The notes: a model not told the origin generated them from the letters alone. DNA of 64,000 nt from an uncultured archaeon (GCA_964428495.1 CAYRXY010000003.1:9588-73587); one strand, 5' to 3'; numbered from the stretch's first letter, positions 2,060 through 64,000 are shown. Numbers and translations: made by a program.

Positions 2060-2065
2060 GAGGAA

Positions 2066-8936: not shown

Positions 8937-8993
8937 TCACTAATGGATATTATGGTTCATCTTTTTATCCTTTATTCGGAAGAGTTATTATAT

Positions 8994-26742: not shown

Positions 26743-27867
26743 ATGAGCTTCGAAATCATTGAAAAGTTAGAATACGGAAAACTTGCAACATTTATACCTA
26801 ATAAAAACCTTCCGATATATAACTGGTTCTACTTCAAGGAGGGATTCTCTAGAGATTTGGCTGTGGAGTTATTCAGAATGTTTAATTTAAGGAAAGGTTC
26901 GTGGGTAATGGATCCATTCTGTGGAAGTGGTACAACGCTATTAGCTGGAAAAGAAAAGGGAATAAACTCAATTGGTTTTGATGTTTTACCTATATCAGTC
27001 TTTGTATCAATAGTAAAAACCAGAGACTATAATATTGAAAAACTTGAGAGAATTTCTAAAGAAATTTTAAAAATTAAATTCGTAAAACAAAAGTTTAGTA
27101 TATCAAAGAATGTAAAAAAATATTTCTCTCCGTACACATTAGAAGACATAATATTTTTCAAGAGATTGATTTTATCTCTAGAAAATCCGGAGAGAGATTT
27201 CTTTCTTCTTGCGTTAATAAATGCATCTATGAAATGTAGCTATGCTTTCAAGGATGGTGGGTTCGTCAAAGTGAGGGCCAAGAATGTACCTCCACTAAGG
27301 CAAATGTTTAGAAGACAAATAAAGAAAATGATAAAAGATCTTAAGGAATTCGAGGTGCAGAAGTGTAAAGTTATTGTAGAGGAAAGAGATGCAAGGACTA
27401 TAGACGTAGAGGATTCGGTAGATGCAATAATAACTTCACCTCCGTATTTGAACAAAATAGAATATCAAAATGTTTACAAAATAGAGCATGAGTTATTTTT
27501 TGGTAGGAAGAGTTCAACAACGATAAGATCATTCATAGGTACAATAAAAGAAAAGGACGAAGAATTTGGACATATAGACAAAATCGTTAAAGAAGAACAA
27601 GCAAAGAGATACTTTAAGGACATGTACATAGTAATAGAAAATTTATACAGAGCTTTGAAAAAAGGGGGGTGGGTAGGGATGGTCGTCGGTAATGGATGCT
27701 TCCCATCCAGTGTTATTGAATCTGACATTATTTTATCAAAAATTGCTGAAGAGATTGGCTTCACTGTGAAAAAAGTAATAGTACTAAATAAAAGATTTTG
27801 TACAACCCCGTCAAGGAGAAAGATAGGAACAGCTAGAGAAAGTCTATTGATCTGGGTGAAAGAATGA
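26743..27867 (+). CDS. DNA amino-methyltransferase (N6-adenine or N4-cytosine)
   Basis: Motif I VMDPFCGSGTTLLAG and motif IV IITSPPY. Confidence 0.8.
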   Translation: MSFEIIEKLEYGKLATFIPNKNLPIYNWFYFKEGFSRDLAVELFRMFNLRKGSWVMDPFCGSGTTLLAGKEKGINSIGFDVLPISVFVSIVKTRDYNIEKLERISKEILKIKFVKQKFSISKNVKKYFSPYTLEDIIFFKRLILSLENPERDFFLLALINASMKCSYAFKDGGFVKVRAKNVPPLRQMFRRQIKKMIKDLKEFEVQKCKVIVEERDARTIDVEDSVDAIITSPPYLNKIEYQNVYKIEHELFFGRKSSTTIRSFIGTIKEKDEEFGHIDKIVKEEQAKRYFKDMYIVIENLYRALKKGGWVGMVVGNGCFPSSVIESDIILSKIAEEIGFTVKKVIVLNKRFCTTPSRRKIGTARESLLIWVKE

Positions 27868-48564: not shown

Positions 48565-48614
48565 AATTATCTCTTATAGTTTTTCCATTTATAATTTGAA
48601 AAGAAAAAAGAAAA

Positions 48615-49580
48615 TCATCTAACTAAGAATGCCCACCAAGGTCTTCTTATGTGAATTACATCTCCTGTAACTACGTCGGCACTACTTTCCACTGGAACGT
48701 TAACGTTAAACACACCGAGAAATTTTCCTGGTTTCAATGCTCTTACCTTGTAAACGACTTTGTTCCCTTCACTATCTATCTCAATTCGTTCAAGCTTCTT
48801 AAATTTGACTTGTTGCCTTATCTTGTTTATTACATCATCTGGAAGCGCCTTTATTTGAGCCGTAACGTTTCTTTCTGTTCGCACTACAACTGTTCCGTTT
48901 TCTATTTCGATATTTCTTCTCGTCACGACTGTTAGATTTCCTATTCTCATTTCAACTTCCCCCTTACTCTCGTTCACTGTCATATTCACTACTCTTTCTC
49001 GTATCCTCGCTCTAATTCTTGCTAACCTTGCAGGAATAGCTGTCTCGTTTGTCATATTTTTCATTCTTAACCATGCAGAAATTCTTGCTTTTCTAGGATT
49101 AATCACGAACCTTTCTATACCCTCTGTGTGATTAAGCGCATTTTCCACTTCAGTCTCATTTCCTGTTTTCACAATAGATATCTCAGTATTAGGAGCTATT
49201 ATGTGAATCTCCTTAGTATGATTTTCATTATTCTGACTAATTTCTATCACTGCCCTTGGAGTTGTTATGTATGTTTCCTTTGTTTCATTAGAGATTACCA
49301 TCGTTCTGTTTACCCCTCTACTACTCATAGAAATGATTTTCGACCCGTTAACAATCTCTCTAGTTATGTTAACCTTTCCCTCTGGTGTTTTTATTTGAAT
49401 CAATTTTGTACCGTTAATATCGACAACAGTTTTGTTCTTAAGTAAGTGGGATAACGCAACTGGTCTCATCTTGTTCATTATGTGAAGAGTCCCCGGTGCT
49501 GCGTTCTGACTCTGTGGAAATACTGCAAAGCCCACTGAAGCTACTAACAGAACTGATAATAAAATCAATAGTTTCTTCAT
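48615..49580 (-). CDS. Secreted N-glycosylation-sequon-rich protein, possibly pilus-associated
   Basis: Signal peptide MKKLLILLSVLLVASVGFAVF. More than 20 N-x-S/T sequons. Sits between the secretion ATPase and the ParA-like gene. Confidence 0.5.
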   Translation of the reverse strand: MKKLLILLSVLLVASVGFAVFPQSQNAAPGTLHIMNKMRPVALSHLLKNKTVVDINGTKLIQIKTPEGKVNITREIVNGSKIISMSSRGVNRTMVISNETKETYITTPRAVIEISQNNENHTKEIHIIAPNTEISIVKTGNETEVENALNHTEGIERFVINPRKARISAWLRMKNMTNETAIPARLARIRARIRERVVNMTVNESKGEVEMRIGNLTVVTRRNIEIENGTVVVRTERNVTAQIKALPDDVINKIRQQVKFKKLERIEIDSEGNKVVYKVRALKPGKFLGVFNVNVPVESSADVVTGDVIHIRRPWWAFLVR

Positions 49581-49584
49581 AGCA

Positions 49585-50325
49585 TCACCTAAACCATCTT
49601 CTTATAAATAAGAACATTGGCTCTTTATATTCTTTTCCTGTGAGTTTGGAGGCTAGTCGGAAAAATGCCACGCTCGCAGGAGCGTACGGATGATATTCAA
49701 CAACAGGTTTCTTTGCTGCCAAACTCCTCAAAACGTTCTTATCAAAAGGTATTTTACCTATCACAGGAGCCCCTAGGGTTGCTTCAACTTCAGCATCCCC
49801 AATCTCGTGTTTCTCCCTCATTACCCTGTTCAAAACTATACCCTTAATCTTCACGCCCATATCCTTGGCTACTTCCACTGTCTTTAATGCATCCGTAACA
49901 TCTGGAAGGTATGGCGATGTCACAACCAGTATTTCATCGCATGCTTCCAACACATTAATTGCCGTCTTATCTAGCCCAGGGGGTGAATCTATTAGAACTT
50001 TTGTATCAAACTCCTTTAGAGCCTGCTTTAGACCTGATGAGTCAATATTAAGATACCTAAGAGAAAGATGAGCTGGAATAAATCTAAGTCCTGTTTCATG
50101 TATATGAAGAGCTTCTAGAAGGGAAAGATTCTGATTAAGAACCTCATGAACCGTTTTATCATAATCAAAGATTCCCAAGTGTAGACCGAAGTTTGGATTT
50201 TTTAGGTCTCCGTCCATAACAACAACTTCCTCTCCAAGCTTGTGCATTGCTAGTCCAAGATTAACAGAAACCGTAGTCTTCCCAACACCTCCTTTACCAG
50301 ATACGATGCCAACGACATTCCTCAT
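49585..50325 (-). CDS. ParA/MinD-family ATPase (TadZ/CpaE-like position)
   Basis: Deviant Walker A GIVSGKGGVGKTTVSVNL. 246 aa. 4-nt overlap with the regulator gene. Confidence 0.85.
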   Translation of the reverse strand: MRNVVGIVSGKGGVGKTTVSVNLGLAMHKLGEEVVVMDGDLKNPNFGLHLGIFDYDKTVHEVLNQNLSLLEALHIHETGLRFIPAHLSLRYLNIDSSGLKQALKEFDTKVLIDSPPGLDKTAINVLEACDEILVVTSPYLPDVTDALKTVEVAKDMGVKIKGIVLNRVMREKHEIGDAEVEATLGAPVIGKIPFDKNVLRSLAAKKPVVEYHPYAPASVAFFRLASKLTGKEYKEPMFLFIRRWFR

Positions 50326-50705
50326 TTTTCAATCACTTTTACTTTATAATATTTTTTCTTTTCTTTTATTTCTCCTTCAAGTATTCCTTGAGATTCCAAA
50401 AATCTTAGATATTGATTTGCACGCGTTCGTGAAATACCAAGCTTCTTTCCAGCTTCTTTGGCTGTCATTGGTTTTTGCTTTAATAAAAATAATATTTGTT
50501 TTTCCTTCTTCGGATTGAGATCGTTCTTACCCTCTTTCAATCTCTTCTCTAAGCGCTCCACACGATGGCCAAGCTCTTTAAGCATTATTACAATTTCCTC
50601 TTTAACCTCTCTTACCTGAATTTTTCTTGGTTCACCAACAAGATTTTTTACCTTCAGTAAATCTTCAGAGACTTCAATCCTTCTCATTTCAATTATTATT
50701 ATCAC
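50322..50705 (-). CDS. Winged-helix transcriptional regulator
   Basis: C-terminal HTH MTAKEAGKKLGISRTRANQYLRFLESQGIL. First gene of the minus-strand pilus-assembly operon. Confidence 0.6.
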   Translation of the reverse strand: MIIIIEMRRIEVSEDLLKVKNLVGEPRKIQVREVKEEIVIMLKELGHRVERLEKRLKEGKNDLNPKKEKQILFLLKQKPMTAKEAGKKLGISRTRANQYLRFLESQGILEGEIKEKKKYYKVKVIEK

Positions 50706-50875: not shown

Positions 50876-51910
50876 ATGAAACAAGTAATTTTATTTTCGC
50901 TCTTAGTATTGTTATGTATATTTCCAGCTCAGTCCTTTGGCGGTTCAGTGCAAACGTGGCCAAAAAATGGAATATTAAATACGATCAATGATTTGATCGG
51001 AGGGGTCGTTAACTTTTTTGAAGGAATTGGAAGTAGCATTACGGGTATGATTACAGCAGTTCCAAAGGGTAGTATCCCATCTAGTGGTACAAAAATCCCA
51101 ACCACACCTACTTCACCAGAACCTATGACAACTCTATCTACAACAACGTCTACAAGCACTTCAACGTCTACCACTACATCGATCGCTACAACAACTACCA
51201 TTCCGACAACAAGCACTTCGACAACCACTACAAGCACTGTTGAGACAACTATACCTACAACTACAACCATAGAACCAACCACTACTGTCAATGAAACAAC
51301 GACAACGATCGAACCTAATACAACAACTACAGTGAACGAAACGACAACTACCATCAATGAAACTACTATCCTTCCTGTAGAAGCTCAGACAAAGAATATA
51401 ACTAGTAATGAAACCACTACCACAGTGGAAACGACTACCACGATAAATCAAACCTTGAACAATGCATTAAACCAAAATAATACCCTAAATGAAACAAATA
51501 TCACACTCACTACTCTACCTTCGACAACTAGTACAATCCTGACTACGACTAGTACGATACCGACAACTACAAGCACTCTGGAAACTACAACCGTGCCAAC
51601 AACGTTGGAAACAACAACTACGTTAAATGAAACCGAACTTCCAAACCTTGTGATTGGTGTTGCTATGCCCAAGAAGATAACAAGAGGACAAAAGTTTTCC
51701 ATAACTGTTAGCGTAAACAATCTAGGAGGTCCGGCTTCGGGACTTGATGTATCATTACTGCTTCCGGATGGATTTGAGGTAATAAGTTATGACTCTGATT
51801 GTTCGTCATTATCATATGGTCAAACCTGTTCAGCGTTGTTCGTTGTGAACAGCTCCCTATCTGCATCTCTGGGGGCAAATAATTTTGGTGTGTTGGTGAG
51901 ATATGAATAA
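50876..51910 (+). CDS. Secreted Thr-rich mucin-like protein with C-terminal CARDB/DUF11-like beta-sandwich domain
   Basis: Signal peptide MKQVILFSLLVLLCIFPAQSFG. About 200 aa of T/S/N-rich low complexity (TTTSTSTSTSTTTSIATTTTIPTTSTSTTTT...). C-terminal ITRGQKFSITVSVNNLGGPASGLDVSLLLPDGFEV. Confidence 0.7.
   Translation: MKQVILFSLLVLLCIFPAQSFGGSVQTWPKNGILNTINDLIGGVVNFFEGIGSSITGMITAVPKGSIPSSGTKIPTTPTSPEPMTTLSTTTSTSTSTSTTTSIATTTTIPTTSTSTTTTSTVETTIPTTTTIEPTTTVNETTTTIEPNTTTTVNETTTTINETTILPVEAQTKNITSNETTTTVETTTTINQTLNNALNQNNTLNETNITLTTLPSTTSTILTTTSTIPTTTSTLETTTVPTTLETTTTLNETELPNLVIGVAMPKKITRGQKFSITVSVNNLGGPASGLDVSLLLPDGFEVISYDSDCSSLSYGQTCSALFVVNSSLSASLGANNFGVLVRYE
51100..51620 (+). repeat. Low-complexity ACN-codon (Thr) tract
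   Basis: Repeated acaac/actac motifs encode poly-Thr/Ser. They generate several spurious antisense ORFs (50929-52114). Confidence 0.7.
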
Positions 51911-53969
51911 AGGAGTAAGTAGTGTAATAGCTGCTGTAATATTGGCATCGGTAATAGCTGTATCTGGACTTGCAGCTGTAAAGCTTTCGACTACAGGACT
52001 TCTCACAGCTGGAAAGATGAAGCAGCAAACATTACCTATGGAAGTGTTTGCTAATACGAATCTAAAACTTTGGTTAGAAAACGATACTCTAAAGGCAAAA
52101 TTAATATTAGACAATGAAACACCAGTCTCTGGTGAAACCGTCTATTTCTCATTTGATCAAAGTAAATACTCCGCCACCACAGATAAGAGTGGTGTCGCTT
52201 CTGTTAAAATAGGAAACTATTCCGGCGCCATTGTCGCATCCTATCCGGGAAATGGTAAGAAATACCTGAATGGGGTAGAGGAAAGTATTAGCACAGAGGA
52301 ACTGGATCTAAGTCAGATTCTTCCTCCTGAAGCAAAGAATGTAGTAGTTAAGGAAAAGGAAACGAGGAAGGTATTAAAGACATTCACGAGAGTAAAAAAT
52401 GTAAAACTGAAGATAATTACACCGAAAACTTCTCTTTTAACAGGGTTTGCTACAAAATCTGAATCATCTAAAATAATAGTTAAGAAACAAATTAGAGCCG
52501 TACTGAATCAACCTGTAAAGTGGAAAATAGATACCGGAAATTACGAAATCGAATATGAAACATCAAAACCAATTGCGAAGGAAATTATGCTGGGAAAAAG
52601 AAAGAAGATAATCGTAGAGTCGAATGCATCAGATCATTATTATAATATTTCCGCATTTACCACGATACCAGAACTCAGCTTTCAACCCCGTCTTTACCAC
52701 ATCGTAAATGGTCAGCGCATCGACGTGACAAATGATCCAAGGTACAACGTCTCCTACTGGGATACGAATGGTAACGGCTTATATGACAAGATTACGTGGA
52801 TTGTTCCGATGTTGAGTAACGATACATACGAAATCGATCTAACAATTCTTAATCTTCAATCTTACCCTACCGTCGGTGGAAACTGGACTGTTAAATTCAC
52901 AACACAAGGTACTGCCGACCTATGGATCAGACCTGTTAACGGAACTACATGGTCGCTCTCTTCCTCAGACAATACCGATCTTCAATTCTTAGATATTCGT
53001 TGTGGTAACGAATCAGTCAACTACCAATGGATTAACGGCTCTGTTTATGTATTGGGCTGGTCATGTAATGAAACAGGATATGAAATTAGTCATGTAAAGA
53101 CTCATGGTCATCATTACTTAGAATTCAAATTTGGTAATACAACAAAGTATGCAGAAAATTTTGCCAGTGGTCAAACAATCTGCGGTGTGACATTTAGTAA
53201 TATTACATACGAATTTTTGAACCCATATGGTAATACAATTTTAGCAGTGGATGACAACGGAAATGTCTTGATCAAAAGTACAAATGTTCATACAAGTACT
53301 GCACCGTCATCTGCACCAGTAAATGGTTTTGGAATTCAAATAAATGGTGTCTGGAATTGGACATTTAATGCAAGTGATGCCTACATTTCTGGTAATATTC
53401 AACGATCAATAATATTACCAACATCGGCGGGAGCGAACGATGTTCTCATAGTAAACGCTAGCAATGGCGTTCCACTCCTTTACTTTAATGGATCTTCTGG
53501 TGATCTATTAGCAAAAGGAGTTGTAGTTTATCAGGGAGCACAACTAAATTGTCCATCTGATGGATATTATTGCTATGCGACATATTATAGGGAACATAGA
53601 AATTATTATTGTAATGTATCATCTGGCGACTGTGATTATACCTACTCAAATCGAATAGATTGTAGAAAATACTGTAAAGATATTTGTCATAGATATACCG
53701 GATGTTCTAGTGGTGCATGTAGTGGATCTACTGCTTGTGCAGATAACTATCATTGTAAAGTTGGTTCAGGATGTATATCAGGTGATGGGTGTAGTGGATA
53801 TAAATTATGTTCATGCTCAGGTGGATCAGCAACATGTGTCTGTAACAAAGCGACATGTCATGCACCATGTGCAACTCATTCAGATTGCCCTTCAGGGTAT
53901 TGCTGTGACATGGGTACTTGTACTTGTTATAAATCTGATGGTAGTCTTTGTCCGGGTATGAACATATAA
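51903..53969 (+). CDS. Large prepilin-like surface protein (class III signal peptide) with extremely Cys-rich C-terminal domain
   Basis: N-terminus MNKGVSSVIAAVILASVIAVSGLAAV matches the archaeal prepilin KG|x hydrophobic-helix pattern. 688 aa. The last about 130 aa contain about 45 Cys (CKDICHRYTGCSSGACSGSTACADNYHCKVGSGCISGDGCSGYKLCSCSGGSATCVCNKATCHAPCATHSDCPSGYCCDMGTCTCY). ATGAATAA overlap with the upstream gene. Confidence 0.6.
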   Translation: MNKGVSSVIAAVILASVIAVSGLAAVKLSTTGLLTAGKMKQQTLPMEVFANTNLKLWLENDTLKAKLILDNETPVSGETVYFSFDQSKYSATTDKSGVASVKIGNYSGAIVASYPGNGKKYLNGVEESISTEELDLSQILPPEAKNVVVKEKETRKVLKTFTRVKNVKLKIITPKTSLLTGFATKSESSKIIVKKQIRAVLNQPVKWKIDTGNYEIEYETSKPIAKEIMLGKRKKIIVESNASDHYYNISAFTTIPELSFQPRLYHIVNGQRIDVTNDPRYNVSYWDTNGNGLYDKITWIVPMLSNDTYEIDLTILNLQSYPTVGGNWTVKFTTQGTADLWIRPVNGTTWSLSSSDNTDLQFLDIRCGNESVNYQWINGSVYVLGWSCNETGYEISHVKTHGHHYLEFKFGNTTKYAENFASGQTICGVTFSNITYEFLNPYGNTILAVDDNGNVLIKSTNVHTSTAPSSAPVNGFGIQINGVWNWTFNASDAYISGNIQRSIILPTSAGANDVLIVNASNGVPLLYFNGSSGDLLAKGVVVYQGAQLNCPSDGYYCYATYYREHRNYYCNVSSGDCDYTYSNRIDCRKYCKDICHRYTGCSSGACSGSTACADNYHCKVGSGCISGDGCSGYKLCSCSGGSATCVCNKATCHAPCATHSDCPSGYCCDMGTCTCYKSDGSLCPGMNI

Positions 53970-53984
53970 ATACGTGTGAGTAAT

Positions 53985-56900
53985 ATGATAAAAAAAATAA
54001 TATCGGCCGCGATTTTAATGTTATTTATATTATCCACTATAGCCTTTTCTTTACCCATATCTTCATCTTACATAGAATCTGGGAATAGTGCGACAGTTCA
54101 AATGAACTCTGGTTCTGTATTTTATGGAGAGGTTGATGCTGGTCAGGTCGTTTCTTGGAAATATCTGAAGTATCAAATTTCTGGAACTGGTATTACTGCA
54201 CAAGCTATGGTTAATGTTTCTGACTATGAAAACTTTGCCTCTGTAAAAGGTAGTACTGGTTGGTTTTCTATTAACGCAGATGGCGTACTTGATATTAAAG
54301 AATTATCATCAACATTTAACCTTCCATATGCACGATATGCTCGATTCGCAATAAAAGGAACTGGAGGAGCCTGGCAAATTGATCAATCATGGTTAGAAAT
54401 TTCCACCGGTCCTGATGTATTTCAACCAAAAACGTATTCTACTACAGGAACAGAAAAAACAACATTTAATGATGGTGATAATGTTGTAATAAAAGTGAAC
54501 GTTACAGATCCTGATGGGGCATCTGACATAGGTAGTGTATTGATAAACATAACTGATCCAAACGGTGTTTCAAGAGTTATAAATGGAGTAATGAGTGTTG
54601 ACTCTTCTATAAGTTACGGAAAAACGTATAGATATAACTTTTCAACTACAAATGTAAATGGGACTTGGTCCTTTACAATAGTGGCAAAAGATTCTACTGA
54701 AAAAACCGATTCAAAAGCTGGATCCTTTGTTATAGTTGATACACATGCACCAACCATTACTCTAAATTCTCCAGCTAACAATGATTGGACAAACAATAAT
54801 AAACCCACATTCTACTTTACACCTGATGATTATATTGATCCGGTTTTGGATTGTAGTCTTTACATTGATGGAAATGCCTGCGGTTCAACAACTGCAGATA
54901 GAGGACAACAATCAAGTATAACATCTACATGTACATTAACTGTTGGAGCTCACAATTGGTATATCAAATGTACAGATGATAAGGGTAATACCGGCCAATC
55001 ATCAGAAACGTGGACGATAAACATTGACACCACTCCACCAACCTATACTTGGCTTTCTCCATTGAGTGGAAGTTGGTATAAAGATGGAGATTCAATTAGT
55101 ATTGATGTTGATGTTTCTGATGGAACAGGTGTCGGAATAAATGATGGGGAAAATTGTAATGTAGAGATAGATGATTCAACGACATCGTTTACGGGGACAG
55201 TTACTTATAGTAGTGCGACAGGTAAATGTACTGGAACGATAAAGCTGAATAATCCATCAAATCTAGCAGAAGGTTCAAATTCTCATTCGATAACTGTTAG
55301 TGTTCCTGACAAGTTAGATAATGTACAGACATCTTCAGGACTGTTAATTTCGATTGATAATACTCCACCAACGATAACTTATGTAACTCTAAGTGATTAT
55401 GATGTTCAACCGGGGACAACAATCACGGTAACTACGGATGGCTCTGATTCACTTAGTAGCATAAATACTTGTCATGCTTATCTTGATGATGACACAAACT
55501 ATGGAAATGGATATCTAGATGACTTGGGTGAGTTAGGAACCGACTGTAGTGGACCTGTAACATTACCTTCTGTTAGCAACGGAATCTATTATATAGTCGT
55601 TAGACCAGTGGATAATGTGGGTCTTTCAAACACGAAGGCAAGTAGTGCGCTTAAAATCGATTCAACTTCCCCATCTTGTTTAATCAAATCAATAAAAGAA
55701 GTTTCTGGAACTGATTATTCTTATGTAAGTGGAACCACGATATGGTACAATAATGTAAGTAGTGGTTCATTCATGGTCAATGTATCTGCAAGTGACGATC
55801 TTGCAGGAGTAAGTAGGGTGGTGTTTCCTGCTACAACATCATCTGGTACAACCGACTATTCATCGCCATATAACCACACATACACCTGGTCTATTGGTTC
55901 GAGTTATTCCAGTACAGCAAATGTAACGTGTTATGATAAGGCAGAAAATTCCGCTACTACTTCATTTACCATAACTTTAGACAATACTCCTCCATCTGAT
56001 GGTTCAATAACTTACACTGATGGTTACTACACAACAAAGAGCGTTTCCATATCATATTCATTAGGTTCTGATAATGTGGGTGGTGTCGGCCTTAACACTG
56101 CAACTGGTAGGATTGAGAGAAACTCAGCACCACTAAGTGGTGGTGTTTGTGGTTCTTGGTCTGGATGGACAACGCTCTTATATGATTCTGATGGAACTCA
56201 TGTAGATGAAACCGTCCAAGATAATTATTGCTATCAGTATATATACAGAATCTGTGACGAAGTAAGCAATTGTAAAAATTACACTTCTACCAATATCGCT
56301 AAAGTGGATTCCGTATTACCAACAATTTCATATATTGAACCACCGACTGAAACAAACAACAGTATTATTCATGAACCATTCATAGAAGTGAAGGTTTCAA
56401 CAAGCGATGCTGGTGCTGGTGTTGATAAGATTACCATCTACCTCTACAGAGCAGATACAAAAGCCGGACCTTACACACTAAATGCGACCAAGACATTATA
56501 CTACTCTGGTCAAACCTCTGCTTCACTCTTGGCAAACTTCACGGGATTGGGAGATGGATTTTACAAGTTCAACGCAACAGTCTGGGATCAAGCAGGAAAC
56601 AAACAATCAACAATGACAAGAACCGTTTCAATAAGTCTTAACCCAACAAACTTAACAGATCTTTCGTATTCCTGTGAAGATGATTGTGGATGGGGTGAAG
56701 CATGGAACTTCACCGCCAACATCACCGACAAAGACAATAATCAACGGCTGAATCTCACGTTGCAGTTGTTTAATAGATCAGGATCCGGAATGTGGGAAAA
56801 CATCGACTCTAAAATAGTGTACAGCAACGGAGATAGTTTTGCCGAGACATTCTCGTTAGATCCTGCCTGGACTAATATAGATTCTAACAAAACAAGGGAG

Positions 56901-59900
56901 TTTAGATTTATGGCCACTGATAACTGGGATGCTACATTCTATAGCGATCCTATAACTGTCGATGTCAAGAGAGATGATGTGCTGTTAAGTATCACAAAAG
57001 GTATTAATGAAATTGTAAACAGGGATGACAGTACCGACTACTCAAATGTAACACTTGAAGCAAGGTTATACGATGTGGATAAAGACGGATACGTAGCTGG
57101 AGAAAACATAGATTTCTTGTTCTTAAATGCTAATGGTTGGATCAAAATAGGATCGTCCACTACAAATGGAAATGGTTACGCTGAATTTATATGGAACCCA
57201 GATTGTACTATCTCACCATTAGGAGAACATCAATGGAGTGTGAACCATTCAACAAGTTCATTATACAAATTTACATCTAACAGTAGTCAAGTAACAATTA
57301 GAGAAAAGCTTCATGTAACCATTTTACAGCCAACTAATGGTGAAATAGTACATAGAAATAAGATATATCAATACTTACGTGCTAGCATTGCCGATTCTTG
57401 TGGGAATGACTTAACATCTAGCTCTACGATAGATTGGTCAACAGGAGCAAAGGGTCCTAGCGTGGAATGGTCAGTACCAGATCAACTAGGGAATTTCACT
57501 ATAACCGTCAATGGAAGTATTTCTGATTCATTTTATGATCCAGGGGACTCGAGTGTCATCGTGAAAATATTTGGATATTCTAAAACCACCGACTTACAAA
57601 CATATGCTCTATGGTCTCATAACGAAACATCAGCAATTAAAGGCGAACCTGTTAAGATAAATTGCAACGTAAATGATGAAAAAGACTCTCCTATATCTAG
57701 CTATCCGGTGAATTTCTCTGTATTCAATTCCACTGGTTCACTAATCTCATCTTATGTAAACTATACCAATTCATCTGGTGTTGCAACGTGGATATGGAAT
57801 ACAAGTGGAAAATCCGTTGAGACTTACACGATAAAATGTTCAATAGATAATATCGAAGATCCTCAAAACCAACTATATTATAGTATTACTAGCGATTATA
57901 ACCAACTACAGAAGAGCTTTGATGTAAAATATCAAGATCGATTACTCCTTGAAACTGATAATAGCTGGATATATAGAAACAACACGTTTAACCCTCACGT
58001 AGCAACAATAACTGCAAAATTCATGAAATCATATGAGGATATGCAAAGTGGATATATAGAATTCACATATAAGAATGGAACACATATAGCCAGTTGTTCA
58101 GCCGATTCATCAGGTACATGTTCAATAACATACGATGAGTCAGACTCCGCAACTCCTGAGGAATATTTAATAAAAGTGGGTGCTGCAAAAGATCTCGATA
58201 ATTTCCTTGATAAAAATTATACTGCAACATCTAATATATCCATAGAAGTAAGAGGTAAATTAAGTCCTGTAACTTTAATCAAACCAATTTCAGAGGCTAA
58301 ATTCAATAAAACGAACTATATAAACTTTTCTTCATCTGTTGAAGATGAAAACGGTAATGTTGTAAATGCTAATGTTTCATATATTCTTTCTGGAAACAAT
58401 AAAGGTGACTTTAGAATAGTAAAGGACGTATCATCTGAAGAGACTAGATGGAAAATATTTAATGATCTAAAACCTGATTCATACTCAATAACTGTAAATG
58501 CAACAAGACCATATTATACAGGTAGTAGTACGCTTGGTTCGAGGAGTATTTACATTTACGGTTTTGCTAACGTCACGAATCTAACATTAGATTATCCTCT
58601 TTACAATGCACCAACAAAGGTAAGCTGTAAGGTAATTGATAGAGACTCATCTGAGCTTCCAATAAGTAAATATAATGTAAGCTTCTGGTATGAGAAGTTG
58701 GGTATATGGACTCTAATAGGGTCTAATCTGACAGACACCAATGGTACTGCTACGATGTGGTGGATTCCTGATATTGTAGGCACAACCAAACTAAAATGTA
58801 ATATTTCTGATCAATTAAAGATATTTTACTATGCAAATCCTTTAGCAAGTGAAGTGATCAATGACACTGTGTCTGTTGGCGATAACGAATCGCCAGAAAT
58901 TCATTCATTTGAAAAAATTGGAACTACACCGTTAGAGGCAAACCATCAGAGCTTGACATTCAAAGCAAACGTAAGCGATAATGTAGAGATAAGTAGTGTA
59001 CGGGTTGAGATTACCGGAGTTGAGAGTGATATTGTTATCTTAAACCCCGAGTCCATAGATGATAGAGGAAATGGAATTTATTCGATAGTTTATACACCAA
59101 AGAAGGGTGGATTTCACTATGCTACATTGTATGTAAATGACACGACTAACAATACCAACTCCAGTGAATCAATTAGCTTTAATGTAATTGGTACTGCTAA
59201 TGAGAGCATGAGTATTACACCAACCTCCGTAACAACGGATGATAACATAACGAGGGATAATCCTTACAACTTTACGCTAAATATTATTGTCAATAACACA
59301 GGATCATCAGATATTATTAACAATGGAACAATGTACAATGTCAACATGTCTCTTGATCTTCCAACCGGTTTCACAACAAAAAATATAACTAAAATATGTG
59401 AATCCGTTCCTGTTGGTGGAACGTGTGAATGGAACCCTGAAATTCAGGTAACGAATATTGTGGATCTCGGTACAAACACAATAACTATTAATGCTAAATG
59501 GAATAACCCAGATAACAGTATATCGACAGATTCTAAATCAATTTCAGTAGATGTTTTGGAACACCCAGAAATATCTATAGAACCTAACCCAGTAATAGGT
59601 ACAGCTAATCACGGAGAGACGATAGAAATACCTATAAATGTTTCAAACTTTGGAAACACAATTCTATATGCAATAGGTTCTTCCTGTTTAACATATACAT
59701 ATCCACTTAATTGTAGCTACATAACTCCATCGATTCCATATAGTTTAAATAAAAATGATACTCAAAGTGGTAATATTGTTGTTAAAATACCAAAAGGTAC
59801 TGATCCTAAACAGTACGAGTGGAAGCTTAGAATTAATTCAACAAAATATGTAAATAGTTATGGTGAATATGTCTCTTGTACTTCACAAGGATGTTATAAA

Positions 59901-62900
59901 GATATTACCGTAGATGTTAATGTAAATGAGGATAAAAGTTGGAGCATCTCACCTAATAAAACAAATCTTTTAGTTCCTATAGAAGATTATAGATCAATAA
60001 ACATAACATTAAACAATACCGGTAATGTTGATAGAAATTGGACTATTTCCACATCGGGCTGTGGTAACATAATTGGTCTAGTTGTATCTCATCCACAGTC
60101 TATATATGTTCCAAAAATCAGTAGCAAGATCATTCCTATAACCATAGATGCAACAAATGCCGAAAATGGTGGAAATTGCACGATAATTATTTCATTCAGT
60201 AATTCTAGTGCAGAACCACAAGCCAATAGCACGGTGATTAACTTAACTGTAGAGGACACCCCACCTAATTTTAATGTTCAGATTCTTCCATACGATTATA
60301 TAGATATGGGCAAAGAGGATGTTACAATAAACGCAACCGTGGGTGATAATAAATTAGTTATCTATGATGGTATCAATCTTACAAAACCAGACGGATCAAC
60401 TATAGTTCTAGTTGGAAAGAAAAGTGTTAGTCGACCATCTGATACAATGACACATGTCATCTTAAGTTCAGAATTAGACCAGCCAGGAGAATATAAAGTA
60501 AAGGTCTATGCATGGGATAATGCCAATCCAAGTAAATATAATGAAACTATTATAACTTTCCATGTATACCCAACAACATCTTTAGCATTAAAGACTAACT
60601 ATACGTCAACTACTATGTTGAATACTGTAGAAGTAAATGGAATAACAGCAGAGGATTCAAAGACTGTATCAGTTAACGTGACTATTAATAACACAAAGAG
60701 GATTGGAGCTTATAATGTTAATCTAACAGGAATCAATGGTCCATTGAATAAAAAATTCACTTTAACACCATCATCACAATACTACAATAAAATAAAGATA
60801 CCTCCTGTTATAAGTAAGGTATTCAATATAACGATACCCGCAGGTACACCACCTTCAGGCTCTACAGAATACTATGTTACATTCGGAGCTCGATGGGAGA
60901 ATCCGGATGGAACAATTGACTCTACTTCAACCCCCTTCTATATTAAAGTAAACCCGACGAAAATATTAGAGATCACATCCAATTCATCGACCTATACCGT
61001 TCCTCACGCATCAAAGAAAACAATAAATATTACTTTATATTCAAGAGGTAATGCTCCTATCGATAACATAAAATTATCATGTGTACCAGTCGGATTGATA
61101 GATTATTGTAAGAATTTCAGCGTATCTATTACACCATCAAGCACAAGTTTAGGAGCCGGAGAAAAGACAATAGCTAAAATGACATTAAATGTCCCATTCA
61201 CATATCCTCCTGGAGACTATAATATAAAAATCGTTGCAAATTCATCAGACTTAAATGACGTAGTAAGTCTTCCTTTAACTATTCACGTACCTGTAGACAC
61301 AACTTGGAACTTAACTCCAACACAATACAACTTCACAACAGGTAGTGGAAGCTATGGATACTTCTATGTCAACGTTTCATCATACGCAAACGTTAACTTA
61401 AGCTTTACAACATCTTACACCAATCCAAACATAACGGCTTCTGAAACAACCTTCACACTCAAAAAAGGCACACTTCGCCTCCTAAAAATTAATTATACGG
61501 CACCAGAACTTGCTGAGAATGAAAATGAAAGAAATATTACTGGAAATGTAACTGTTTCATGTACTGATTGTGGACCTCTACAAAATCAAATACAATCCTC
61601 CACTCTCAATGCAAACATGAGAGTACTTCCATTCAAGCTTTATATAGAAAATATTGAACCGACTAATGATATAAGAGCTGGAGACGAAATTCAGGCAATA
61701 GTAAATGTTACATTTGCGGGTCAAATCTTAACAGATCCAAAACTCGTAGCATTCAATGCATATATAGGAGATAAACCATGTGAAACTACAAGTGAATTAT
61801 TCAATATAAGTAAATGGAAGGTAAGATTCAAAGCACCAACACTCCCAGACGGGAAGAATTACACGTTGAGAATAGAAGCTATTCAACTACAATACAATGC
61901 AAGAACTCCAAGATATTTCAATTACATCCATTATAAAGACGTGACCCCTCCTAACATAACATCTGTTAAAACGAGCTTCATAGAACCACAAAAACCTGAA
62001 GAAATATACGTTAATGTAACCGACAATGTTAAGGTAGACAAAGTCTGGATAGTAATATACCACAATGGATCCGTATTTGGAAGCTTTAATTTAACTAACC
62101 TTACAACTAACTTCGTAAATTCAAAATGGAAATGGAAATCACCAGCATTAACTCTCCCAGGAGATTATGATGTTGTAATTTATGCAAATGATACTACTGG
62201 TAATATAGCAAACCTAAGTACATGGTTCAGAGTTAATCAAAAGGTTAGAATAGAGGGAATTGTAAAAGATGTTAAAGAAAATCCAGTACCAGTAGAATTA
62301 GGAATTTATAAGAATACAAAAGCTGGAATAGGTTCGTACATGGTTACAAAAATCATGAATCATACTGGAAGTTACAACGTAAGTATACCTAAAGGAAAAT
62401 ATGACATCACGATTAAGGCATTAGGTAATGAATTCACATTCAGAGATGTGAATGTTGAATCCAACTTAACAAATATAACCAGAGTGAGTGATGTTGATCT
62501 AAGTGTTGTAACTTCACAACTACCTCTAGAGGGGGGACAATTACTAGGAGCGATAGGAATTGAACATAACATTTCATATTCATCTGCAGATGTTATCTTG
62601 AACTTTTCATCAGAAAATCTGATTCCAGGAGATCTCGGACTGAAGAATATTGAGGTATATAGATGTGATGATTGGGACTTTGATAATCAAACATGTAATG
62701 GTGAATGGACCAAGGTAGAAAATACTGAGGTTGATGTGGCAAACTTACTCATAAAGGTACCGTCAACAAAGCTTTGTGCATTTGTAATTGTAAAACCAGC
62801 TGTTGCACCTTCTACAGTTACAGTTCCGCCACAGCAACCGACATCACCTGGAGGTGGCAGCACAGGCATATCATCTCAGTTAGAAGAGGCTTTAGAGAAA

Positions 62901-64000
62901 TTAGTTAATCAGAGCCAATTACCACCAATATCAGCAGAAACCGATTTAATTGAGGCGACACTTCATCCAGGAGAATCTAAACTATTCTCGTTATATCTTT
63001 CGAACAATCTCAACAAACCGGTTACGGCCCATATAAAAATACTTGGAAGTATTTGGCAGTTTGTCCAGTTAGAGAAGGATAATGTCACTATACCTGGAGG
63101 TGGTTCTGAATCTGTCCAGATGAAAGTCTACACATTACCAACAACACCTGTAGGAACATATACAGGCGATATCATAATTTCAACAGACAAGTATACAAGA
63201 ACGATACCAATAACGTTGATGGTTGTACCACCTAAAGAAGCTTTACTTGATCTAAAGGTCAATGCAATAACTAAAGAAGTTCCAATTAATGGAAGTTTGA
63301 AATACTATGTAACACTCTATAACTTGGGTACAAAGAAGAGATTTGATGTCACACTAATATACAGGATCAAATCTGCTACAACAGAGGAAATTCTTGATTA
63401 CAAAGAAGAGACTTTGGCAATAGAAACATCTCTTGCATTTGTCAGAGTTTATGATTTGTCTAAAGTAAAGGGAATAGTTCTAGGAAAATACTTTATTGAA
63501 GTAATAGCAAAATATGATAATAAAACAGCTAGTGCAGTAGACATATTCGAAATTAAGAAGCCGTTCTGGACCAAGGAAAGAATTATGTTGCTTGGTATAC
63601 TAGCAGCATTGATAATAAGCGTTTTGGTTGGTTGGAAAGGTAAACAGTACTATGACAAATGGAAGTTAAAGAAGATGAGATACTTACATCCCGTTGATAT
63701 GAAGAGTCTTCCAAAGGGTGAAGTATGGCTCGGTAAATTAGCAGAGATGAATGTAAGAGCTGAATTCAAGATGGATGATTTAACAACTCACGCAATAGTC
63801 GCAGGTGCAACAGGTTCCGGTAAATCTGTTGCTGCAATGGCCATTGCAGAAGAAGTATTGAAACAAGATATTCCTGTTGTCGTATTCGATCCAACAGCAC
63901 AATGGACAGGATTTGTAAGACCATGCAGAGATAAGAAGATGTTATCATTCTACAAGAAGTTTGGTCTAAGAGAGGAAGATGCAAGACCATTCAAAGGTAT
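53985..64000 (+). CDS. Giant surface protein (at least 3,338 aa, 3' end beyond window): signal peptide, many Ig-like/beta-sandwich modules, C-terminal TM helix and cytoplasmic FtsK/HerA-type P-loop ATPase domain
   Basis: Hand translation shows an uninterrupted ORF from ATG 53985 to the window end. Sec signal MIKKIISAAILMLFILSTIAFSLP. Repeated modules are bounded by D-x-T-P-P-T/S linkers. N-x-S/T sequons occur throughout. TM helix IMLLGILAALIISVLVGW (about 63584-63645). Walker A HAIVAGATGSGKSVAAMAIAEEVL...VVVFDPT (63801-63829). Confidence 0.85.
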   Translation, partial: MIKKIISAAILMLFILSTIAFSLPISSSYIESGNSATVQMNSGSVFYGEVDAGQVVSWKYLKYQISGTGITAQAMVNVSDYENFASVKGSTGWFSINADGVLDIKELSSTFNLPYARYARFAIKGTGGAWQIDQSWLEISTGPDVFQPKTYSTTGTEKTTFNDGDNVVIKVNVTDPDGASDIGSVLINITDPNGVSRVINGVMSVDSSISYGKTYRYNFSTTNVNGTWSFTIVAKDSTEKTDSKAGSFVIVDTHAPTITLNSPANNDWTNNNKPTFYFTPDDYIDPVLDCSLYIDGNACGSTTADRGQQSSITSTCTLTVGAHNWYIKCTDDKGNTGQSSETWTINIDTTPPTYTWLSPLSGSWYKDGDSISIDVDVSDGTGVGINDGENCNVEIDDSTTSFTGTVTYSSATGKCTGTIKLNNPSNLAEGSNSHSITVSVPDKLDNVQTSSGLLISIDNTPPTITYVTLSDYDVQPGTTITVTTDGSDSLSSINTCHAYLDDDTNYGNGYLDDLGELGTDCSGPVTLPSVSNGIYYIVVRPVDNVGLSNTKASSALKIDSTSPSCLIKSIKEVSGTDYSYVSGTTIWYNNVSSGSFMVNVSASDDLAGVSRVVFPATTSSGTTDYSSPYNHTYTWSIGSSYSSTANVTCYDKAENSATTSFTITLDNTPPSDGSITYTDGYYTTKSVSISYSLGSDNVGGVGLNTATGRIERNSAPLSGGVCGSWSGWTTLLYDSDGTHVDETVQDNYCYQYIYRICDEVSNCKNYTSTNIAKVDSVLPTISYIEPPTETNNSIIHEPFIEVKVSTSDAGAGVDKITIYLYRADTKAGPYTLNATKTLYYSGQTSASLLANFTGLGDGFYKFNATVWDQAGNKQSTMTRTVSISLNPTNLTDLSYSCEDDCGWGEAWNFTANITDKDNNQRLNLTLQLFNRSGSGMWENIDSKIVYSNGDSFAETFSLDPAWTNIDSNKTREFRFMATDNWDATFYSDPITVDVKRDDVLLSITKGINEIVNRDDSTDYSNVTLEARLYDVDKDGYVAGENIDFLFLNANGWIKIGSSTTNGNGYAEFIWNPDCTISPLGEHQWSVNHSTSSLYKFTSNSSQVTIREKLHVTILQPTNGEIVHRNKIYQYLRASIADSCGNDLTSSSTIDWSTGAKGPSVEWSVPDQLGNFTITVNGSISDSFYDPGDSSVIVKIFGYSKTTDLQTYALWSHNETSAIKGEPVKINCNVNDEKDSPISSYPVNFSVFNSTGSLISSYVNYTNSSGVATWIWNTSGKSVETYTIKCSIDNIEDPQNQLYYSITSDYNQLQKSFDVKYQDRLLLETDNSWIYRNNTFNPHVATITAKFMKSYEDMQSGYIEFTYKNGTHIASCSADSSGTCSITYDESDSATPEEYLIKVGAAKDLDNFLDKNYTATSNISIEVRGKLSPVTLIKPISEAKFNKTNYINFSSSVEDENGNVVNANVSYILSGNNKGDFRIVKDVSSEETRWKIFNDLKPDSYSITVNATRPYYTGSSTLGSRSIYIYGFANVTNLTLDYPLYNAPTKVSCKVIDRDSSELPISKYNVSFWYEKLGIWTLIGSNLTDTNGTATMWWIPDIVGTTKLKCNISDQLKIFYYANPLASEVINDTVSVGDNESPEIHSFEKIGTTPLEANHQSLTFKANVSDNVEISSVRVEITGVESDIVILNPESIDDRGNGIYSIVYTPKKGGFHYATLYVNDTTNNTNSSESISFNVIGTANESMSITPTSVTTDDNITRDNPYNFTLNIIVNNTGSSDIINNGTMYNVNMSLDLPTGFTTKNITKICESVPVGGTCEWNPEIQVTNIVDLGTNTITINAKWNNPDNSISTDSKSISVDVLEHPEISIEPNPVIGTANHGETIEIPINVSNFGNTILYAIGSSCLTYTYPLNCSYITPSIPYSLNKNDTQSGNIVVKIPKGTDPKQYEWKLRINSTKYVNSYGEYVSCTSQGCYKDITVDVNVNEDKSWSISPNKTNLLVPIEDYRSINITLNNTGNVDRNWTISTSGCGNIIGLVVSHPQSIYVPKISSKIIPITIDATNAENGGNCTIIISFSNSSAEPQANSTVINLTVEDTPPNFNVQILPYDYIDMGKEDVTINATVGDNKLVIYDGINLTKPDGSTIVLVGKKSVSRPSDTMTHVILSSELDQPGEYKVKVYAWDNANPSKYNETIITFHVYPTTSLALKTNYTSTTMLNTVEVNGITAEDSKTVSVNVTINNTKRIGAYNVNLTGINGPLNKKFTLTPSSQYYNKIKIPPVISKVFNITIPAGTPPSGSTEYYVTFGARWENPDGTIDSTSTPFYIKVNPTKILEITSNSSTYTVPHASKKTINITLYSRGNAPIDNIKLSCVPVGLIDYCKNFSVSITPSSTSLGAGEKTIAKMTLNVPFTYPPGDYNIKIVANSSDLNDVVSLPLTIHVPVDTTWNLTPTQYNFTTGSGSYGYFYVNVSSYANVNLSFTTSYTNPNITASETTFTLKKGTLRLLKINYTAPELAENENERNITGNVTVSCTDCGPLQNQIQSSTLNANMRVLPFKLYIENIEPTNDIRAGDEIQAIVNVTFAGQILTDPKLVAFNAYIGDKPCETTSELFNISKWKVRFKAPTLPDGKNYTLRIEAIQLQYNARTPRYFNYIHYKDVTPPNITSVKTSFIEPQKPEEIYVNVTDNVKVDKVWIVIYHNGSVFGSFNLTNLTTNFVNSKWKWKSPALTLPGDYDVVIYANDTTGNIANLSTWFRVNQKVRIEGIVKDVKENPVPVELGIYKNTKAGIGSYMVTKIMNHTGSYNVSIPKGKYDITIKALGNEFTFRDVNVESNLTNITRVSDVDLSVVTSQLPLEGGQLLGAIGIEHNISYSSADVILNFSSENLIPGDLGLKNIEVYRCDDWDFDNQTCNGEWTKVENTEVDVANLLIKVPSTKLCAFVIVKPAVAPSTVTVPPQQPTSPGGGSTGISSQLEEALEKLVNQSQLPPISAETDLIEATLHPGESKLFSLYLSNNLNKPVTAHIKILGSIWQFVQLEKDNVTIPGGGSESVQMKVYTLPTTPVGTYTGDIIISTDKYTRTIPITLMVVPPKEALLDLKVNAITKEVPINGSLKYYVTLYNLGTKKRFDVTLIYRIKSATTEEILDYKEETLAIETSLAFVRVYDLSKVKGIVLGKYFIEVIAKYDNKTASAVDIFEIKKPFWTKERIMLLGILAALIISVLVGWKGKQYYDKWKLKKMRYLHPVDMKSLPKGEVWLGKLAEMNVRAEFKMDDLTTHAIVAGATGSGKSVAAMAIAEEVLKQDIPVVVFDPTAQWTGFVRPCRDKKMLSFYKKFGLREEDARPFKG

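Follow-up and report, generated by a model that had tools for sequence, protein, structure and literature searches.

A giant SPEARE-like surface protein with a HerA-type cytoplasmic ATPase in an Aenigmarchaeota-like archaeon

We analyzed a 64,000-nt stretch of DNA from an uncultured archaeon (GCA_964428495.1, CAYRXY010000003.1:9588-73587), here called the window, which ends within a giant open reading frame (ORF). The original prediction, made from the sequence alone, described this ORF as an adhesin-like ectodomain fused to a cytoplasmic ATPase of the FtsK/HerA type, an architecture that it could place in no described archaeal system. We found that the giant protein very probably belongs to the SPEARE family of surface proteins and carries a motor of the HerA clade. 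The giant gene and its parts are listed below, with amino acid (aa) positions counted from its ATG; Ig-like stands for immunoglobulin-like and TM for transmembrane.

53985..64000, + strand: giant ORF, very probably a SPEARE-family surface protein; of its inferred 3,586 codons the window holds 3,338 (the 5' 93%), and it runs past the window end (open frame; homology with the SPEARE of Ca. Nha. antarcticus; continuation on a sister contig)
53985..54056, + strand: putative Sec-type signal peptide, aa 1-24, MIKKIISAAILMLFILSTIAFSLP (hydrophobic segment; n/h/c layout read from the sequence)
54057..54464, + strand: orphan N-terminal tip, aa 25-160, predicted all-beta, presumed distal end of the stalk
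54450..56630, + strand: N-terminal Ig-like block, aa 156-882, with MG2-like, Big_13, Big_7, and Big_3_2 matches and six of eight D-x-T-P-P-type linkers (Pfam; linker positions)
56631..62876, + strand: central stalk, aa 883-2964, of divergent beta-sandwich domains (Pfam; alignment to the stalks of relatives)
61011-61241, + strand: NPCBM_assoc/NEW3 domain, aa 2343-2419, in the central stalk (Pfam)
61812-62240, + strand: Big_3_3 domain, aa 2610-2752, in the central stalk (Pfam, sub-threshold)
62877..63575, + strand: conserved membrane-proximal module, aa 2965-3197, a linker and two Ig-like (CARDB/NEW3-like) domains followed by KPFW(T/D)K (collinear with the Nha. antarcticus SPEARE and 20 homologues)
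63573..63641, + strand: single TM helix, aa 3197-3219, with K/R-rich cytoplasmic flank KGKQYYDKWKLKKMR (hydropathy; conserved position; model of a homologue)
63642..63998, + strand: start of the HerA-clade ATPase, aa 3220-3338, cut by the window end (Pfam DUF87; columns invariant in family alignments A1 and A2)
63804-63827, + strand: Walker A motif GATGSGKS, aa 3274-3281 (sequence motif)
63888-63911, + strand: DPTAQWTG motif, invariant in the family alignments

From the ATG at 53985 to position 63998, the giant ORF contains 3,338 sense codons and no stops. At the regional base composition, a stop is expected once per ~13.6 codons and the chance of a frame so long is ~1e-111; the five remaining frames over the same interval contain 134 to 365 stops each, with a longest open run of 104 codons. 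The ORF is therefore, as first claimed, more than 10 kb long and still open at the window end, and we saw neither a stop nor a frameshift in it. Its ATG follows the stop codon of the preceding gene by 15 nt, and the gap includes a purine-rich stretch, GTGAG. A BLASTP comparison of the giant protein with itself detected no internal similarity at E <= 1e-3, and the DNA of the gene is free of tandem repeats and of direct repeats that reach 30 nt; therefore, repeat-driven assembly collapse is not a concern. Because the window end cuts the gene, we considered whether the ORF might be an artefact, either a mis-assembled repeat region or a pseudogene that is open by accident. This reading is effectively refuted by the chance of the open frame, the lack of DNA and protein repeats, the homology of most of the giant's length to independent giant proteins, and a second assembly, described below, in which all differences are synonymous.

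Only two segments of the giant protein are hydrophobic, aa 1-24 and aa 3197-3219. The first has the layout of a Sec signal peptide, as had been proposed, and the second is a single helix with the positive-inside flank predicted for it (net charge +6 on the C-terminal side versus ~+2 on the N-terminal side). The position of this helix is conserved in an alignment of 20 homologues (A1), and it appears as a long helix in the AlphaFold2 (AF2) model of a homologue, P0004. The claim of a high density of N-x-S/T sequons was also borne out: the ectodomain contains 111 (3.5 per 100 aa), compared to 57 +/- 6.5 in composition-preserving shuffles, which amounts to a twofold excess of predicted N-glycosylation sites. 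There are none in the 123 cytoplasmic residues of the giant, and the cytoplasmic proteins of the window have 0.24 to 0.94 per 100 aa. The giant is a type I membrane protein with an acidic (isoelectric point 4.7), all-beta ectodomain of ~3,170 aa and ~347 kDa. Thus, one gene product does join a Sec-exported, sequon-rich, multi-kilobase ectodomain, one TM helix, and a cytoplasmic ATPase.

The ectodomain begins with the N-terminal tip, for which we found no Pfam match and zero homologues among 5.8 billion proteins; a single-sequence AF2 model of the tip was unusable, with a predicted local distance difference test score (pLDDT) of ~33. When we checked the ectodomain for Pfam families such as CARDB, Big, and PKD, two families scored above their gathering thresholds (GA): Big_13 in the N-terminal block (38.3 bits versus GA 27), which is also the only module of that block that AF2 modeled with confidence, and NPCBM_assoc/NEW3 in the central stalk (45.6 bits versus GA 24.4). 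Other Big families fell below threshold. Sub-threshold matches comprise MG2, Big_7, and Big_3_2 in the N-terminal block and, in the central stalk, an MG4-like domain (aa 1222-1286), a DUF4625/filamin-like domain (aa 1632-1720), and the Big_3_3 domain. From aa ~900 to aa 3338, the giant can be aligned to the stalks of further members of the family (P0203, P0201, P0244, L015, and L007). The original prediction held that tandem modules of about 90 to 110 aa are each opened by a D-x-T-P-P linker, a motif that is common at the boundaries of Big-type Ig-like domains in the form D-x-T-(A/P)-P. A modular beta-sandwich stalk is supported; a linker for each module is not, as there are only eight such linkers (at aa 348, 458, 559, 624, 666, 775, 2090, and 2652), six of them within aa 348-775. 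Because the linkers are so few, and because there is neither internal similarity in the protein nor repetition in the DNA, the modularity of the stalk is structural: a string of divergent beta-sandwich domains rather than of sequence repeats. The stalk ends in the membrane-proximal module, whose KPFW(T/D)K motif sits just outside the membrane, and the P0004 model likewise places a beta-sandwich immediately ahead of the TM helix.

Beyond the TM helix, the window holds the start of the ATPase, which also carries a juxtamembrane RY..P.D...LP motif and a GKLAE hairpin. We searched this region with the profiles proposed for it and found that DUF87 (PF01935, Helicase HerA central domain) matches aa 3249-3304 at 34.2 bits (GA 23.2) and the complete C-terminus of a near-identical protein, P0197, at 39.8 bits. 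FtsK_SpoIIIE (PF01580) reaches 16.8 bits in the window and 19.8 bits in P0197, below its GA of 24, and HerA_C is sub-threshold in the window protein. The claim that the P-loop is of the FtsK/HerA type therefore stands for the HerA/DUF87 branch and falls for the FtsK branch of the superfamily, which was reportedly defined by Iyer et al. in 2004. We then searched PDB sequences with a profile (A2) of 41 cytoplasmic regions from family members. The best matches were Sulfolobus HerA (4d2i, 2.8e-13), YjgR (3.8e-10), and several HerAs of defence systems (~1e-9); DotL (1.5e-3), FtsK (6.5e-3), and TrwB (0.4) were marginal, and VirB4 was absent from the matches of this profile in the PDB. The A2 profile aligns to residues 112-176 of 4d2i, which include the hairpin ahead of Walker A, and, with its Walker B, RE.RK.G, and SQ columns, to residues 295-443.

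The fold agrees with the profile search. The AF2 model of P0004, which is 55% identical to the window protein in the part they share, has a pLDDT of 89.8 and runs from a beta-sandwich through a long TM helix to a RecA-like core and a C-terminal helical hairpin (helices 410-483). In a Foldseek search of the PDB with this model, HerA structures were best (1.3e-12), followed by TcpA (2.2e-9) and VirB4 (4ag6, 2.3e-8); these alignments span the ATPase part only, with a TM-score of ~0.45. In the model, nothing but a short hairpin separates the TM helix and the RecA-like core, so that the TM helix occupies the place of the N-terminal HAS barrel of HerA. Because HerA is best in both the PDB profile search and Foldseek, we assign the motor to the HerA/DUF87 clade of the FtsK-HerA superfamily, HerA being nearest by sequence profile and by fold, and not to FtsK, VirB4/TraG, or the restriction enzymes. 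The Walker B, RE.RK.G, and SQ columns are invariant in A2 and in this gene all lie beyond the window end.

The missing 3' end could be read from a sister contig, JAGHBY010000020.1 of GCA_021160745.1 (L022), which encodes P0197. This 731-aa protein is 100% identical to aa 2856-3338 of the giant and then continues for 248 further residues to a stop. The L022 DNA is 99.79% identical to window positions 62548-64000 over 1,453 nt, and its three differences are all synonymous. The continuation contains LLVVFDEVHRLL, CREFRKWGIGMVMISQ, FRPLLHSPH, and the tail GIDTSDIELDLKLAKDKLKIGAFRMAEIYIETLKGRL; it thus carries the Walker B motif VVFDEVHRLL and REFRKWG..SQ, in which the arginines are candidate arginine fingers. 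We infer a full-length giant of ~3,586 aa and ~395 kDa before glycosylation, with a complete predicted ATPase and a helical-hairpin tail. For the gene in the window, the 99.8%-identical contig is strong indirect evidence that the ORF does not end soon after 64000 and that a Walker B follows.

The giant lies on an Aenigmarchaeota-like (DPANN) chromosome. The window encodes MCM, aEF-1alpha, Mre11/Rad50, the Met-, His-, Ser-, and Tyr/Trp-tRNA synthetases, a wyosine radical-SAM enzyme, a tetrapyrrole-methylase-family protein (diphthine-synthase-like), and three tRNAs, as an ordinary archaeal chromosome would, and its G+C content is ~36%. These informational genes support the archaeal origin first proposed for the stretch, and its EF-1alpha has 76 to 82% identity to entries named Candidatus Aenigmarchaeota/Aenigmatarchaeota.

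The architecture of the giant is not without precedent, as had been thought, but is the plan of the SPEARE proteins. In Nanohaloarchaeota, these reach 8,553 aa, are mostly extracytoplasmic with a TM helix near the C-terminus, and are most conserved in their intracellular portion; their production was shown by proteomics, and SPEARE-like sequences were noted in Woesearchaeota, Aenigmarchaeota, Micrarchaeota, and Altiarchaeales (Hamm et al. 2019, PMC6642349). A 2023 re-annotation described a signal peptide, ~75 Ig-like domains, a TM helix, a "VirB4/TraG-like" secretion-type ATPase, and a coiled coil, and rejected the earlier protease and endonuclease annotations (PMC10266531). We compared the C-terminus of the Ca. 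Nha. antarcticus SPEARE (taken from Fig. S18 of the supplementary information of PMC6642349) with aa 2800-3338 of the giant by BLASTP and found 30% identity over 399 collinear columns (E 1e-49). The alignment spans both proximal Ig-like domains, KPFW, the TM helix, RY..LP..GKLAE, Walker A, and, at the window end, DPTAQW, so that the collinear stretch covers the last ~375 aa of the giant in the window. In other respects, too, the giant resembles a SPEARE: its bulk is extracytoplasmic, with one C-terminal TM helix and a cytoplasmic end, it has thousands of residues with adhesion-type domains above threshold, and a coiled-coil/helical tail follows the ATPase in P0197 and in the P0004 model, outside the window. 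Laminin-G was not among the Pfam matches at E <= 0.1, although a divergent jelly-roll could hide in the unmodeled tip, and Pfam detected no protease or toxin family in the ectodomain. The protease, laminin-G, and endonuclease features that gave SPEARE its name were thus not found here, and they are themselves disputed.

With the final 339 aa that the window encodes of the giant as query, we retrieved 67 homologues, all with DUF87 and most of them fragments on short contigs. Those with a named source come from Aenigmarchaeota, Nanohaloarchaea, Woesearchaeota, Micrarchaeia, and Altiarchaeota, which are the lineages listed by Hamm et al., plus one Nitrospirae entry. In A1 the shared cassette consists of two Ig-like domains, (K)PFW, the TM helix, RY..P.D...LP, GK(I/L)AE, Walker A, and DPTAQWTG, and in relatives it continues with Walker B VFDEVHRLL, REFRKWGIGL..SQ, FRP..H, and a helical tail; these motifs are common to the 20 to 41 homologues of A1 and A2. 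A profile search of 1.84 billion cluster representatives (50% identity) retrieved at least 451 at E <= 1e-30. Among the best 150 of these, all carry the whole cassette at or near the C-terminus, with lengths of 452 to 7,878 aa (median 2,033; 39 of at least 3,000 aa). The architecture is therefore widespread. The closest copy of the C-terminal module in a metagenome-assembled genome is from an Aenigmatarchaeota member (L001, 44% identity). The relatives whose loci we compared include the following.

L003, Woesearchaeota: 3,671 aa, complete
L007, Micrarchaeota: at least 3,975 aa
L015, metagenome: at least 3,934 aa
L018, metagenome: at least 4,099 aa
L016, metagenome: at least 2,138 aa
L006 and L009, Woesearchaeota: ~1,330 aa
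L005, Altiarchaeales: 683 aa

One further, metagenomic locus, L017, has an ectodomain plus TM part (2,608 aa) and an ATPase (445 aa) in the same frame, parted at 10817-10825 by a TAA; an ATG lies two codons after the TAA, just before Walker A. This is either a natural two-gene split or a nonsense mutation or sequencing error. Together with the existence of members with short ectodomains, the split form shows that stalk and motor are separable modules.

Downstream of the giant, L022 encodes three proteins, one of 305 aa and two coiled-coil proteins of 437 and 339 aa, none of which matches an ATPase family. The 305-aa protein (2185-3102) combines a signal peptide, one Ig-like domain, a TM helix, and a tail of the giant's type, with no ATPase; its tail is 40% identical to that of the giant over 52 aa (E 7e-8). 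In L006 (12998-13903) and L009 (7829-8593), the small genes between the giant and the coiled-coil gene also have modules in common with the tail of the giant at that locus. In 11 of 12 relatives (L022 and 10 of the other 11 loci), drawn from several DPANN phyla and from Altiarchaeales, the SPEARE-like gene is followed on its own strand, at a distance of zero to two genes, by a gene for a coiled-coil partner of 230 to 560 aa. The L022 437-aa protein matches the partner family in hhalign with a probability of 98.9%, and the family has a core motif, ..ER(F/L)..(I/L)SE.IGE(I/L)R ... V.PEKL ... KLNEEV. Besides generic coiled coils, the partner family has no relative in Pfam, NCBIfam, or the PDB. 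In the source genome of the window, the position of the partner falls beyond 64000, outside the window; in the relatives, the partner genes are located as follows.

L022: 3104-4417
L003: 12151-13428
L006: 13950-15218
L007: 12023-13627
L009: 8700-9788
L004: 4219-5910
L002: 1837-3111
L005: 5190-6194
L015: 11807-13324
L016: 6455-7150
L018: 12317-13231

Upstream, the giant is preceded by two closely packed genes on the same strand and by a divergent cluster.

51903..53969, + strand: 688-aa protein with 28 Cys, C-terminally clustered, and 19 sequons; same frame as the giant, with its stop TAA 15 nt before the giant's ATG
50876..51910, + strand: first same-strand gene of the cluster, 344 aa, whose product has a signal peptide, is Thr-rich and mucin-like in its middle, and resembles CARDB at its C-terminus (sequence; no Pfam match)
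44307..50705, - strand: divergent cluster (Pfam), consisting of the next five genes
50322-50705, - strand: HTH (helix-turn-helix)/TrmB regulator (Pfam)
49585-50325, - strand: MinD/ParA-type ATPase (Pfam)
48615-49580, - strand: secreted 321-aa protein
46330-48564, - strand: T2SSE/PilB-FlaI-type ATPase, 744 aa (Pfam)
44307-46346, - strand: T2SSF/FlaJ-like (FlaJ/PilC-like) membrane protein, 679 aa (Pfam)

The 688-aa gene is probably in the operon of the giant. The N-terminus of its product, MNKGVSSVIAAVILASVIAVSG, resembles what we take, from the motif, to be an archaeal class III (type IV pilin-like) signal; no Pfam family matches this N-terminus even at E <= 10. In L003, too, the giant is preceded by a gene whose product has a pilin-like N-terminus of this kind, MDKRGASEIVTIVLLVFLALVAV, without profile support. 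The middle of the 344-aa protein is nearly pure Thr/Ser/Asn/Ile/Glu/Pro, with 12 sequons, and part of it is encoded by a degenerate 21-nt tandem repeat in five copies (51257-51363). The divergent cluster holds a type IV pilus/archaellum-like assembly set and may be functionally linked to the giant. When we compared the neighbor genes in the window with the loci of relatives, a MinD/ParA-like gene alone recurred: in L015 (36% identity) and L018 (31% identity), it closely follows the SPEARE-like gene and the partner. Synteny of the upstream cluster was not established.

How might such a protein work? The ~347-kDa stalk would be exported through Sec and N-glycosylated. HerA/FtsK-type ATPases act as hexameric rings, and because of this family behavior, the cytoplasmic domains would form a HerA-like hexameric ring under the membrane, with six long glycosylated stalks per complex, while the C-terminal hairpins would dock onto the coiled-coil partner encoded downstream. 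A channel wide enough for DNA is unlikely to be formed by six single TM helices on their own, so any transport would need additional membrane partners. We consider it fairly probable that the complex attaches a small symbiont to its host and couples this attachment to ATP-driven work where the two cells meet, either movement of a polymer (DNA or unfolded protein) or remodeling of a scaffold. We favor this role because nearly all named members of the family come from host-dependent DPANN lineages and Altiarchaeales, because of the published nanohaloarchaeal work, and because every HerA-clade motor characterized to date is a translocase. Transfer between symbiont and host that depends on contact, also raised in the original prediction, had in essence already been proposed (PMC6642349, PMC10266531).

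Several points weigh against the interpretation of the giant as a SPEARE with this role. It is without a laminin-G or protease domain, both of which are listed in the original SPEARE definition, and L022 does not have the second, VirB4-like ATPase found downstream in nanohaloarchaea. The last 248 codons, the Walker B, and the partner genes lie outside the window and come from a near-identical but separate contig. The N-terminal tip is without homologues or a usable model, so it points to no ligand. For every family member found, hexamerization, ATPase activity, glycosylation, host binding, and translocation are predicted only, and the host-attachment role is extrapolated from Nanohaloarchaeota to Aenigmarchaeota.

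Other explanations start from the same domains. The giant might be mainly a structural or adhesive envelope protein (S-layer-like, a biofilm or substrate adhesin) with no host role, in which the ATPase clusters, anchors, tensions, or recycles the stalk. The ectodomain fits this, consisting solely of adhesin/S-layer-type beta-sandwiches with dense sequons and having no enzymatic or channel-forming domain that we could find, and the neighboring genes encode other secreted glycoprotein-like proteins and the type IV pilus-like assembly set. In addition, the ectodomain is very short in some members (452 to 700 aa), so the ATPase module can work without a giant stalk. We nevertheless regard a purely envelope-related role as rather unlikely, given that the named family members are nearly confined to host-dependent DPANN lineages and Altiarchaeales, that the HerA-clade motors characterized so far translocate DNA, and that the strict family-wide conservation of Walker A/B and the Arg/Gln motifs points to a working motor. 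It is also possible to see in the cassette, the partner, and the tail-sharing proteins a membrane machine common to DPANN archaea and distinct from both the type IV secretion system (T4SS) and restriction systems: a HerA-type motor ring on a cytoplasmic coiled-coil scaffold that would move DNA or other polymers through the symbiont membrane at host contact sites, with the stalks as exchangeable targeting modules. We mention this only as a minor possibility.

Two published proposals would make the ATPase something other than a HerA-clade motor. In the T4SS-like "straw" (PMC10266531), a VirB4/TraG-type secretion ATPase injects effectors into the host; the nanohaloarchaeal domain was called VirB4/TraG-like, and in two nanohaloarchaea a second VirB4-family ATPase (PF03135) is encoded directly downstream (PMC10266531). 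VirB4 and TcpA do appear in our Foldseek results (2.3e-8 and 2.2e-9), and P0197 has weak Pfam matches to T4SS-DNA_transf, TrwB_AAD_bind, and AAA_10, but these score below GA (19.2 versus 20.1, 17.9 versus 20.5, and 17.3 versus 27.5, respectively). HerA scores 3 to 10 orders of magnitude better, with no VirB4 in the PDB profile search. Moreover, neither PF03135 nor any T4SS component is present in the 10 kb upstream or in the three L022 downstream genes, and the downstream gene that 11 of 12 relatives do have, either adjacent or one to two genes further along, encodes the coiled-coil protein, which is not an ATPase. A T4SS-like injector is therefore unlikely. The original SPEARE proposal (PMC6642349), uptake and degradation of host DNA by a type III restriction enzyme inside with a serine protease and a toxin-like pore outside, seems highly improbable for the giant. 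Its annotation was based on ResIII, which does match P0197 above threshold (27.8 bits, GA 22.5); however, the match is to a generic P-loop stretch (P0197 aa 409-556) that DUF87, HerA_C, DEAD, and FtsK also match. There is no nuclease domain, only the helical hairpin following the RecA-like core in the P0004 model, the ectodomain has no protease or toxin family in Pfam, and the re-examined Nha. antarcticus protein was found to have no endonuclease domain (PMC10266531).

We therefore read the giant as a SPEARE with a HerA-clade motor and compared it with known systems on that basis. The nanohaloarchaeal SPEAREs used were those of Ca. Nha. antarcticus (NAR1_1133, 5,998 aa) and Ca. Nanopetramus SG9, together with SVXNc_0300 (9,409 aa) (PMC6642349, PMC10266531). 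Like these, the giant has an export signal, an Ig-like/beta-sandwich ectodomain of thousands of residues in which NPCBM_assoc/NEW3 is the best match, two proximal domains, KPFW, one TM helix, a P-loop, and a helical tail, and it too comes from a DPANN archaeon. Unlike them, it is shorter (3,586 aa) and belongs to a 36% G+C, non-halophile, Aenigmarchaeota-like genome, although its ectodomain is still acidic. We detected nothing in it that resembles laminin-G, a beta-propeller, a protease, or a toxin, its tip is an orphan, and in L022 it is followed by a small tail-sharing membrane protein and coiled-coil proteins rather than by a VirB4-like ATPase.

HerA (S. solfataricus 4D2I), YjgR/DUF853, SIR2-HerA, and DUF4297-HerA are the best matches to the motor by profile and fold, and they share with it the hairpin ahead of Walker A, Walker A itself, Walker B hhhhDE(A/V)H, and (A)RE.RK.G.GL...SQ. 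The giant differs from HerA in that, judging from the model, a TM helix and juxtamembrane segment stand in for the HAS barrel, and a membrane anchor with a giant ectodomain was not seen in the HerA-clade PDB entries matched. Neither NurA, SIR2, DUF4297, nor any other nuclease partner was found among the neighbors in the window and L022. FtsK/SpoIIIE, TrwB/VirD4, TcpA, DotL, and VirB4 have weak but detectable sequence and fold similarity to the ATPase, and EssC of type VII secretion is another membrane-anchored ring ATPase of the superfamily; by analogy, a membrane-tethered P-loop ring that pumps DNA or protein is probably the working principle of the giant as well. However, the giant has one TM helix per chain where FtsK, the coupling proteins, and VirB4 have two to four, the Pfam models of these families score below threshold on it, and it is without the FtsK gamma domain and the all-alpha domain of coupling proteins. 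An ectodomain of several thousand residues is a feature of the giant and of none of the FtsK, coupling-protein, VirB4, or EssC families. Such ectodomains recall instead halomucin, Bap/SiiE/RTX-type adhesins, and Big_13/Big_3 arrays, which are also long strings of ~100-aa beta-sandwiches with D-x-T-(A/P)-P-type domain boundaries and a presumed role in adhesion. In contrast to these adhesins, the giant is fused to a cytoplasmic motor ATPase, and whereas adhesin repeats are usually recognizably alike, its domains have no detectable internal similarity.

DPANN archaea depend on hosts, yet hardly any of the molecules at their contact sites are known. Of the candidates published so far, SPEARE-type proteins are among the foremost, and in a genome of ~1 Mb they can account for ~1% or more of the sequence. 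Although the giant is real and striking, its architecture had already been named, and the locus adds a well-resolved Aenigmarchaeota-like SPEARE to the family. It also sharpens the description of the family, which has a HerA-clade motor, family-wide Walker A/B, Arg, and Gln motifs, and a conserved coiled-coil partner; neither "restriction enzyme" nor "VirB4/TraG" fits this motor as an annotation. The useful increments are the HerA-clade assignment, the recovery of the complete domain, and, possibly new, the coiled-coil partner and the tail-sharing neighbors. In the literature searched, we found no description of the partner gene, the tail-sharing neighbors, or the HerA-clade assignment, and a prior description is possible. 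The sharpened description provides concrete constructs and predictions for biochemistry in cultivable nanohaloarchaeal systems.

Several other genes in the window deserve mention. Mre11 (8943-10202) and Rad50 (10199-12220), located ~42 kb from the giant, are without an adjacent canonical HerA/NurA, and apart from the giant, with its membrane-anchored motor, we saw no HerA-clade ATPase in the window. Upstream of Mre11/Rad50, on the opposite strand, is a LigD-type primase-polymerase protein of the archaeo-eukaryotic primase (AEP) type (7174-8118). A surface-related gene cluster on the - strand (124-3903) includes a MacB/FtsX-type ABC permease (842-2059) beside a 399-aa protein (2704-3903) with a sub-threshold CARDB-like region. 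An N6/N4 DNA methyltransferase with N6_N4_Mtase and MethyltransfD12 matches is encoded on the + strand at 26743-27867. The window also encodes a full-length serpin (15979-17229, + strand; Pfam Serpin, 422.9 bits), which is probably unusual in a small archaeal genome of the DPANN type.

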